This document shows positions 43,301-46,300 of a stretch of DNA of 64,000 nt, one piece after another. The first letter of the stretch is position 1; every line of letters starts with the position of its first letter. The notes below the pieces were generated by a model. It saw nothing but the letters and a program-made list of their open reading frames with translations. It had not been told where the DNA came from and made no database searches. The DNA lies in contig OX638149.1 in the NCBI GenBank assembly GCA_951804945.1, positions 82,398,001 to 82,462,000 on the forward strand, given 5' to 3'. The position numbers and the translations under genes are program-made. This stretch comes from Podarcis cretensis. Its lineage: Eukaryota.

Positions 43301-46300
43301 ACTCAGCACATTCTTTGGTCCCAAATACAGCAGCAACTCCAACTGGTGAGAAAACAAGACCTGTCTGTGAAATGAGGACCTCTAAATCGATTTTTCATTC
43401 ATCCCCAAAGTGCTGTACAAGTACATAAATATCAAATCCATAAAACCCTCTCTCCCAACTCTAGGATTGACATTCATACCTATAGGACATACACCAAAAA
43501 ATTGGACATGTACTTTAAATCTGCCTGTGAAGTTCAGGCTGACTTAACTTCCCCTAGCCCCTGCTTTCCATCTACAGTCCATCTAGTCCTTAATCATCAT
43601 GCAAAGTTCCCACCCCCACCGGCCAAACTGATCTTCTGCTTCCCTCACAACAACTGCAGTGGCTGTCAATAGTCTATAACTGGCCCTTCCTCCTCAGCGA
43701 GTCAAAAGGTTCATGAGCACGGTGTTACTAACGGAACGTCTGAGAAGCTCACAGGCCACAGTGAGCCAGGACATAACTGGCTATGCACATGTAAGACAGC
43801 TGGGTATGCACATGTAAGACAGCTTTAGCAAGAAATCCAGATTTCTGTCAAGCAAAGCTCAGTTCCTCCTCCTCCATTATCTATTTCCTGTTTGCCCCAG
43901 TAAGTCCCTTCCACAAAAGCATCACTTTCACAAACTCCCATAGCAATGACCGCAATCAGGCTGGTTAGGGAGTGTGGCCCGGGCGCGCTCATGGCAAAAT
44001 GTGACATCGAATCAGCCTTCCGTCTGTTACCAGTCCACCCCAGGGACTTCTGGTTGCTAGGTTTCAAATTCCAGGACCAATGGTACTTTGACAAAGCTAT
44101 GCCCATGGGCTGTTCCATCGCATGCGCTGCATTTGAAACCTTCAGCGCATTCGTGGAATGGGCCATGAAACGCAGGTCAGGGTCCCACCGCATTTCCCAT
44201 TACGTCCAGCCAGCGGGCTCAGACGCGTGCGCTAGGGCGCTGGCATGCTTCATTCAGCTGGCAGCTGAATTGGGCATCCCGTTGGCAGCGGACAAGACCG
44301 AAGGTCCAACCACCGTCATCTCATATCTGGGTATTGAACTGGATTCTGTCAGCCAAACCTCTCGCCTGCCCCTGGCCAATCTTGCCTGCTGCCTAAGGAA
44401 CAGCTACAGGTGCACTCTGACGCCTCTGGTCGCTTTGGCTTCAGCGCTTACTTCAGGGGTCACTGGTGCGCACAGCCTTGGCCGACATCTTGGCATGAGG
44501 AGGGCATTACACGTGATTTAACTTTCCTTGAGTTTTTCCCAATCCTAGTGGCTCTCTGTGTTTGGGGGCACCTCCTCAAGGACACCAGGGTGTGCTTCTG
44601 GTCGGACAACCAGGCGGTGGTAAGAATCATTGCGAAGCAATCCGCAAAATCCAACAGGGTAATTTGCGTGCTCCGTCTCTTCGTGCTGGAATGTCTGAAA
44701 GGTAACATCTCCTTTTCTGCGCGGTTCATCCCGGGCCTCAATAACGACATTGCAGATGCCCTGTCTCACTTTCAGATGGAGCGCTTTCGCGACCTAGCAC
44801 CCGAGGCCGATCAACTCCCAGAAGCCTTTCCGGAGGACCTCTGGGAAATTGGACGGGAGAAGTGACAGCAGGAGTTCTGAGCGCCCTTGCACCATCAACG
44901 CTGCGGTCCTACACCAGAGCATGGTCCCAATTCGAGGGGTTCAGAGATAAGTCTGGCTTACGTCGCAGGCGTACAGCTAAGGAGTCTGATGTTCTAAAAA
45001 ATTTGGTTCACCTAAAGCGTAGGGGCATGGCCCTTAAAACCATCAGCCTGCACAAGGCTGCTATCTCCTACTTAAGCAACTGTTTTGGCTCCCAGACCCC
45101 TGTAACACTTTCCACGTAAGGAAGCTTATTGCAGGGTGGCGTCGCTCCCACCCGCCCATTGCAGATAAGAGGAGGCCAGTAACCATAGAGATCCTCCGGC
45201 TGACCTGGGATGCGCTCCCCAGTATTTGCTGGTCCAACTATGAGGTCAGGCTCTTCAGGGCAGCCTTCTCCCTATCCTTCTTTGGTGCACTCCGTATCGG
45301 GGAGTGCATAGGGGGCACATTGTCACCTCATCGCAGGGGCTTGTCTGTGGCTGATATCAACCTTGACAGGCGCATGATACAAGTCAAAATCCAAGCCTCC
45401 AAAAACCGATAAACTAGGTAGGGGTTCCACGCTAAGTCTAGCCTCCTCCCCACACACTGGACCATGCCCTGTCGCGGACACACGCAAATTCCTGAAGGTA
45501 CGTCCTCCGGGACCAGGCCTCCTCCTCATTCATGCATCAGGCCGCCCCATGACCCGTTGCCAATTTGTCTCAATATTGCGTAAGGCCATCCATGCTTGTG
45601 GAGGCGACCCAGCACAATTTTCCGGGCATTCCTTTCGTATCGGTGCAGCAACCTCGGCAGCTGCGAGCGGCCTCCCAGCAGAACACATAAAAACAATGGA
45701 GCGGTGGCGTTCAGCTGCCTTCAAAGGCTATATTCGAAACAACCAGCAGACACTGACAGATACCATATAATCCTTTCTTTCAGGCTCAACCCCCAAACAT
45801 GTGTGGATCTTCGGCCACAGCATAGTGCATTGGGCGGCCATCCATGCCACTACTGGTCCAGGCGGAGAACATCTGGGTCTGCAGCCAAAGATCTCCATTT
45901 CCTGGTTCGGCCAACGAGGAATGCGATGGGATGCCCTGCTCCCTTGGTTGCGTCACGAACTTGCGTTCCGCCATCCGCCAAACGCGGTTGTCCTCCACCT
46001 TGGCGAAAATGACTTGGTCGTGCAAAAAAGCATAATTCTGATCAAAACAGCGATCGCGCACCTGGAAAGCGTACATGCCGCTCACCCCAACATCATGATT
46101 TTCTGGTCTGAAGGAGCTATTTCGGCCCGATGGCGTGCACCTATCGGACCGTGGTAACGAGCGTTGGCTGAGCGACATCAGGCATGGCCTGATTGACTGG
46201 TTGGAGGATGGCAAAGGGGATTTTCAGATGTAGGTAGTCTTGGCGGCGAGACCGCAATCTTTGCGGTCTTGGGTGGTGGTATCAGGCCTTGGGCGGAATC

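Follow-up and report, generated by a model that had tools for sequence, protein, structure and literature searches.

A Ngaro retrotransposon of Podarcis carries an SGNH esterase exon that is probably spliced onto the N-terminal half of Gag

A dead Ngaro element with a fourth gene

We examined 64,000 nucleotides (nt) of the Podarcis cretensis genome (contig OX638149.1, positions 82,398,001 to 82,462,000, forward strand); this whole stretch is called the window, and coordinates count from its first letter. At positions 43950 to 47537 lies a retrotransposon copy of the Ngaro (tyrosine-recombinase) type, now dead, which has an SGNH esterase as its fourth gene. The best explanation of our observations as a whole, which we regard as probable, is that the Ngaro esterase is a terminal exon spliced onto the N-terminal half of Gag (Gag-N).

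From 43950 to 46233, the plus strand encodes the 3' part of a reverse transcriptase (RT), RNase H, the tyrosine recombinase (YR), and the esterase, followed by repeats B1, A2, and B2, all in the same orientation. The class was judged by RT/RNase H and YR domains, split direct repeats, and the absence of a methyltransferase. The RT part (43950 to 44400) matches Pfam RVT_1 (E 2.2e-5) and has internal deletions; comparison with contigs of sequencing run X1 gave 18 missing letters at 44202 and loose ends at 44382 to 44386. The RNase H domain (44401 to 44865, within an open reading frame [ORF] at 44338 to 44865 that ends with TGA at 44863 to 44865) aligns to RNase H of relatives. The YR (44776 to 45770, stop TAA at 45768 to 45770) has an N-terminal extension that overlaps RNase H, matches Phage_int_SAM_1 and Phage_integrase, and is frameshifted near 45082 and 45401, where indels are seen in RNA reads. 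All these Pfam matches fall below curated cut-offs, as the copy is broken, and the RT/RNase H-then-YR order is backed by tblastn and blastp to relatives. A methyltransferase gave no Pfam match after RNase H and would have no room there, since the RNase H frame closes at 44865, already overlapped by the YR frame. B1 and B2 are 97.8% identical over 412 nt and flank A2, which is the split direct repeat arrangement. A 5' deletion has removed gag, the 5' repeat A1, and the 5' part of RT (gag is present in the related loci L016, L020, and L029), and no splice donor can therefore be read from the window for lack of gag and the full 5' repeat.

The esterase exon spans 45784 to 46233, with the block I Ser codon at 45819 to 45821 and a TAG stop at 46231 to 46233; its two pieces are 79% and 93% identical to P0001, the Podarcis lilfordi protein that is closest to it. 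An original prediction, made from the sequence alone, had described a single hydrolase ORF with all four SGNH blocks. The blocks are indeed recognizable (GHS at 45813 to 45821, G, GEND at 46002 to 46013, and DGVH at 46129 to 46140), but the single ORF is not: the frame of blocks I to III stops at 46155 to 46157, and DGVH (block V) lies in another frame. Compared with P0001, about 48 residues are lost to a deletion with a frameshift near 46112. When longer forms of P0001 were sought, 974 candidates yielded one match, P0152, from another family.

The prediction was right that the hydrolase is ATG-less in the window. There is no in-frame ATG from the in-frame TAA at 45768 to 45770 to block I, and the first one past the acceptor lies at 45921, beyond block I. 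The YR C terminus and the hydrolase share one frame here, separated by that single TAA, a point on which the prediction was silent. The 3' splice site (45753 to 45783) has its motifs exactly where they had been placed: the branch-point motif CTGAC at 45753 to 45757, the pyrimidine tract TCCTTTCTTT at 45771 to 45780, and CAG at 45781 to 45783. The letters that follow, GC-TCA-ACC, enter the esterase frame in phase 1. A strict pattern (CTRAY, 10 of 10 pyrimidines, and YAG) occurs twice on the plus strand and once on the minus strand of the 64 kb. Looser acceptor-like sites are common (10 within repeat A2 alone), so the acceptor motif by itself is a weak argument.

RNA reads join at the predicted acceptor

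We compared positions 43900 to 47125 with four of 24 listed runs: the stranded raw lizard RNA runs X22 and X23, which belong to one study and of which about 12% each was sampled, and the contig sets X1 and X15. The element collected 309 reads from X22 and 269 from X23. Junction reads ending at 45784, the base that the original prediction had singled out, are present in both: four in X22 (three different starts) and eight in X23 (eight starts), with seven additional or overlapping X22 reads that have loose ends at 45784. The donor side was placed at 44956 by the program, and the loose letters match the window up to 44983; once they are placed, the intron of the lizard reads is 44984 to 45783, 800 nt with GT..AG ends. 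Its GT donor (44984 to 44985) lies inside the YR gene, is weak, and is probably cryptic. All internal reads are from one strand, which is the sense strand in usual stranded libraries.

The same reads uncovered a second acceptor. Upstream of 44764, depth is close to zero. At 44773, where the window sequence is CTCACTTTCAG|ATG, 18 reads in X22 and 14 in X23 depart from the element, placing a 3' splice site at 44775. This recombinase acceptor (44759 to 44775) is dual-coded in the RNase H motif LSHFQ, and its exon, from 44776, enters the YR frame in phase 1.

Several features of the reads weigh against the proposed splicing to gag. The donor that they use is inside YR, not gag, and the exon upstream of 44776 has no match within the 64-kb window; it may be a gag or a host exon. 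Unspliced reads cross 45750 (14 in X22 and 9 in X23), and the 45784 joint is absent among the joints listed for contig sets X1 and X15. The reads, mostly 90 to 95% alike to the window, apparently come from one degenerate copy in one study; a single expressed copy is indicated by its fixed variants and by a 121-nt tandem duplication in the esterase, which corresponds to window positions 45913 to 46033. Run X1, which carries another organism label, contains a similar back-joint and shares several variants with the X22/X23 copy, a likeness that suggests an old shared insertion or a subfamily.

The esterase acceptor is conserved in phase

A metagenome scan yielded 33 related loci, of which two lack block I and four are fused forms, leaving 27 unfused loci. 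For each, the best YAG no farther than 60 nt from block I was taken, and we asked for phase 1 and at least 8 pyrimidines in 14. This phase-1 rule holds at 21 of the 27 loci, so the acceptor is conserved as the original prediction required. Under a strict version of the rule, 18 of 27 loci pass, versus 1383 of 11788 random positions (11.7%). Thus, the esterase acceptor is both used in RNA and conserved in phase.

The six failures (L017, L020, L030, L029, L031, and L033) count against a general rule, with qualifications for three: L017 is frameshifted, L030 is deleted, and at L020 a phase-0 site outscores the phase-1 site, yet the latter is the one used, judging from the L018 pair described below. 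The remaining three are distant esterases that have an in-frame Met and no clear acceptor; at L029 the esterase lies about 950 nt downstream of YR, and these loci possibly represent a lineage with a different expression route. Also unfavorable are the limited independence of the 27 loci, which form about eight related clusters and include one possible host gene (L005), and the presence of a Met in the open frame of 9 of the 21 passing loci, at varying places. In two of these nine, L003 and L007, the Met follows the acceptor; the other 12 passing loci have none. The ATG-less esterase is therefore a feature of the window and of these 12 loci, and is not universal among relatives. A scan of viral contigs returned 68 pattern matches, none confirmed.

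The shared frame of YR and esterase in the window, seen also at L021, would permit read-through of the TAA at 45768 to 45770 into a YR-esterase fusion. We give this next to no credence: over 14 loci, the YR-to-esterase offset is 0 in 2, +1 in 4, and +2 in 8, so 12 of 14 differ from the window, which argues against a fixed read-through or a fixed frameshift, and use of the acceptor is observed in RNA. Splicing from the noncoding leader A1 in the true env manner, which would have the esterase begin at an ATG of its own or of the leader, is highly unlikely as well. The leader copy A2 does contain donor-like sites at 46812, 46913, and 47025, and L003 and L007 offer a Met after the acceptor. However, no joint from A2 to 45784 was found among the joints listed, the window has no ATG before block I, and the resolved joints of relatives all come from gag.

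Gag is the splice partner in relatives

Loci L018 and L020 form an intron-loss pair. L018 matches the gag 5' end of L020 up to position 223 and resumes at the esterase; it equals L020 minus 224 to 3744, an exact 3521-nt GT..AG intron whose removal joins phase 1 of a gag codon to the esterase in frame. In three other loci (L014, L019, and L027), the esterase is fused to a short, basic, gag-like part with an ATG, and the flanks are long and look genomic. Their unspliced kin carry a pyrimidine tract at the fusion point. All four are short gag-N/esterase copies without RT, RNase H, or YR, and L014, L019, and L027 have a TATA-like box upstream. By their structure, such copies may be reverse-transcribed spliced RNAs. 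A repeat search found no split direct or terminal repeats around the four; the only such repeat is a 48-nt piece of the L020 leader that recurs downstream in L018. Locus L030 was considered as a further spliced form and rejected, its YR-to-esterase deletion lacking GT-AG ends.

The same joint appears in Podarcis proteins. As a query we used the N-terminal half of P0049, a Podarcis muralis gene model from a sister clade whose esterase is 38% identical to that of the window. All 26 matches share this N-terminal half; thereafter 10 lead into an esterase and 16 into Gag, of which 15 have the Gag core and 1 is short. The switch occurs at one and the same Gly in all 26. In the 16 Gag forms, the next residue is T in 15 and M in 1; Gly followed by T or M is the footprint of a phase-1 donor G|GTA. 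These proteins are predicted gene models of the sister clade, and this tempers their weight. A low-complexity N-terminal part that ends a few residues before block I is found in many of 150 more distant relatives.

Gag-N/esterase joints thus exist in relatives, and we infer that a gag donor is the normal partner of 45784 in the window family too. The original prediction had allowed either the leader or gag as the upstream exon; gag holds, through its coding N-terminal half as seen in relatives, and the leader is very unlikely to be the partner. In the route that we favor, a single transcript would start in repeat A and carry a phase-1 donor in mid-gag, after the basic low-complexity N-terminal half and before the conserved Gag core. 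If the donor were ignored, full Gag with its zinc knuckle would be made; if it were joined to the phase-1 acceptor at 45783, the product would be a Gag-N/esterase fusion with its start codon supplied by gag.

Two other routes have to be weighed against this one. The joint inside YR, the only one observed for the window family, could reflect a three-exon route from Gag-N through a YR N-terminal cassette (44776 to 44983) to the esterase, yielding a Gag-N/YR-N/esterase protein, and gene models P0140, P0141, and P0023 also traverse the YR N-terminal piece. This is unlikely, however: within the window the cassette measures 208 nt and does not keep phase 1, its donor is weak (GGA|GTCTGA), the exit points of P0140, P0141, P0023, and the reads all differ, and L018 and the Podarcis models have direct Gag-N joints. 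Alternatively, host transcripts running through dead copies might use the acceptors incidentally, with live elements relying on re-initiation or an internal start on full-length RNA; the expressed copy is degenerate, its upstream exon does not come from the window, and a Met precedes block I in some relatives. We consider this quite improbable, since phase-1 conservation is sensible only with a coding upstream exon, L018 has lost precisely the GT-AG interval from gag to esterase, and an ATG is absent in the window and in 12 of 21 passing loci.

A second phase-1 acceptor may serve the recombinase

The site at 44775 would give a Gag-N/recombinase from the same gag donor, and we lean toward the view that YR is made by splicing at this second acceptor. 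In all seven loci that cover the RNase H end (the window, L008, L016, L020, L022, L025, and L029), CAG encodes the Gln of the LSRFQ-type motif, while the CAG share of Gln codons in those ORFs is 0.38 to 0.71; the Arg of the motif is CGT in 6 of 6. From the phase-1 point, the YR frame runs without a stop through at least 80 codons in 7/7 loci, with no Met at a common position. Protein P0023 joins a gag-like N-terminal part to a 38-residue YR extension starting with DG, and both the length and the start agree with the window frame.

On the other side, P0023 alone joins at the DG position (P0126, P0137, P0140, P0141, and P0073 join elsewhere), no Gag-N/YR fusion is found among the 26 Podarcis matches, and the LSRFQ motif of RNase H is also conserved for protein reasons. 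At the start of RT, L016, L020, and L029 have no acceptor at a common position and weak phase-1 candidates each, with L017 and L028 being uninformative, and the proposed splicing does not extend to RT. Frameshifting is given as the probable route to YR by Poulter and Butler (2015), as quoted in PMC13003380.

The predicted fusion product resembles a LINE ORF1 protein

The esterase assignment extends to its relatives. Among 139 single-domain relatives, the Ser motif is present in 133, GxND in 128, and DxxH in 96. A Foldseek search with the model of P0049, standing in for the window protein, returned SGNH esterases as the top natural matches (E ~1e-7), bearing out the predicted fold. The SGNH domain of this model has five strands and flanking helices, with predicted local distance difference test (pLDDT) scores mostly above 90, and the overall layout is two N-terminal helices (a helical hairpin), a long disordered basic linker, and the SGNH domain. 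Of solved sequences, the one nearest to the esterase profile is that of the ZfL2-1 ORF1 esterase (E 3.5e-7).

Neither a signal peptide nor a transmembrane anchor is seen in the P0049 model, which sets it apart from an env membrane glycoprotein. The proposal of env-like splicing is supported, with a refinement: the 3' gene is expressed from a spliced RNA that removes pol, but probably as a fusion of Gag-N to a soluble SGNH fold rather than a free-standing env-like protein. The fusion protein would consist of a helical hairpin, a disordered linker, an arginine-rich stretch, and the esterase, although an arginine/lysine-rich 15-mer is found in only 23 of 84 N-terminal parts, which speaks against a general basic stretch. 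By analogy to ZfL2-1 ORF1p, and in line with the action on membranes or ribonucleoproteins that the original prediction had raised, the fusion could perhaps be an accessory component of the ribonucleoprotein, held there by the Gag N-terminal half that it shares, which binds or hydrolyzes acidic membrane lipids; we offer this tentatively.

Two groups of esterase proteins have other architectures. P0002 to P0005, P0016, and P0045 are very long proteins with two to six tandem esterase domains separated by low-complexity linkers, possibly host genes that arose by repeated use of the esterase exon. In L005 (4076 to 4660), P0032, P0033, P0069, P0075, P0090, P0097, P0107, and P0118, a Ngaro-type esterase stands behind long non-element sequence, with CSDE1-like cold-shock domains in P0032, P0033, P0090, P0097, and P0107; L005 has the phase-1 acceptor and no RT or YR upstream. 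The L005/CSDE1-like group is a candidate for domestication or exon capture.

Relation to known elements

The element type is known. The Xenopus elements DIRS-53_XT and DIRS-54_XT are described in PMC9210276 as Ngaro-like, with an SGNH ORF among four overlapping ORFs and an esterase function that is unproven; like the window element, they have the order RT/RNase H, YR, and SGNH, a 3' B1-A2-B2 arrangement, and no methyltransferase. They differ in the expression proposed: neither "splic" nor "intron" occurs as a word stem in PMC9210276, whereas here the esterase, and probably YR, are read as terminal exons spliced to gag.

A second parallel is the ORF1 protein of ZfL2-1 (PDB 4C1B), a long interspersed nuclear element (LINE) and thus a non-LTR retrotransposon; according to PMC3905857, this protein has a coiled coil, an arginine-rich motif, and an esterase that hydrolyzes short esters and binds acidic liposomes. 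Its order resembles that of the P0049 spliced product, with two N-terminal helices, a basic stretch, and SGNH; however, the ZfL2-1 esterase protein is the whole first ORF, whereas in Ngaro half of Gag would be spliced to a 3' exon and full Gag would also be made. The resemblance suggests convergence of unrelated retroelements on a protein with a basic linker plus an esterase, and it connects the orphan esterase of Ngaro to the membrane-binding esterases of LINE ORF1p.

The third parallel is retroviral. Env-type ORF3s usually begin at a start codon of their own or with a few codons from the leader, whereas the Ngaro donor lies deep inside gag and yields a fusion. Retroviral env and ORF3 of long terminal repeat (LTR) elements are expressed from spliced subgenomic RNA, and ORF3 of the rotifer Vesta elements is a GDSL-esterase, likewise the 3'-most accessory gene behind a splice acceptor whose use removes pol (PMC5408684).

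Among the searchable literature, which does not extend to the founding papers and Repbase reports, the spliced expression route was not found. Reviews assume frameshifts for the downstream ORFs of YR retrotransposons; here there are exact junctions. What is added is reads at both acceptors, the first found, the exact intron-loss pair, and the esterase exon. These give the real N termini of the esterase and probably of the recombinase, which are needed for protein expression or for building an active vertebrate Ngaro. A wider, joint claim has in our estimate an even chance of being right in full: that animal Ngaro elements run a one-donor, two-acceptor program (full Gag, Gag-N/YR, and Gag-N/esterase) in place of frameshifting, that the esterase fusion rebuilds the architecture of L2 LINE ORF1p, that the spliced RNA is recopied as short gag-N/esterase elements, and that the exon was captured by host genes of fish and squamates.

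Repeats and element ends

The element's 3' end consists of B1 (46274 to 46684, AATAAA at 46577), A2 (46685 to 47125), and B2 (47126 to 47537, AATAAA at 47430). A2 is a copy of the missing 5' leader A1, of which the first bases alone (43950 to 43953) remain. At the left junction (43943 to 43953), GCAATGA and these first four bases of repeat A are fused straight to RT, and A2 starts with the same bases; GCAATGACCGC occurs in the window only here and at the B1/A2 junction. GCAATGA itself is found at three spots, namely the left junction, the boundary of B1 with A2, and the place where B2 ends on the right, as would be expected if a circular intermediate had recombined into a matching target. A 33-nt imperfect inverted repeat spans the B1/A2 junction (46661 to 46735), with GCAATGA in its loop region, and is a candidate recombinase site of the circular intermediate.

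Within repeat A, short units that each end in YAG follow one another (46960 to 47110) as tandem acceptor-like sites; together with the donor-like sites of A2, they may mark a leader intron in A1. The B and A repeats (46276 to 47125) reach, in DNA contigs from run X15, a summed depth about 100-fold that of the coding part, suggesting abundant solo or nonautonomous repeat copies.
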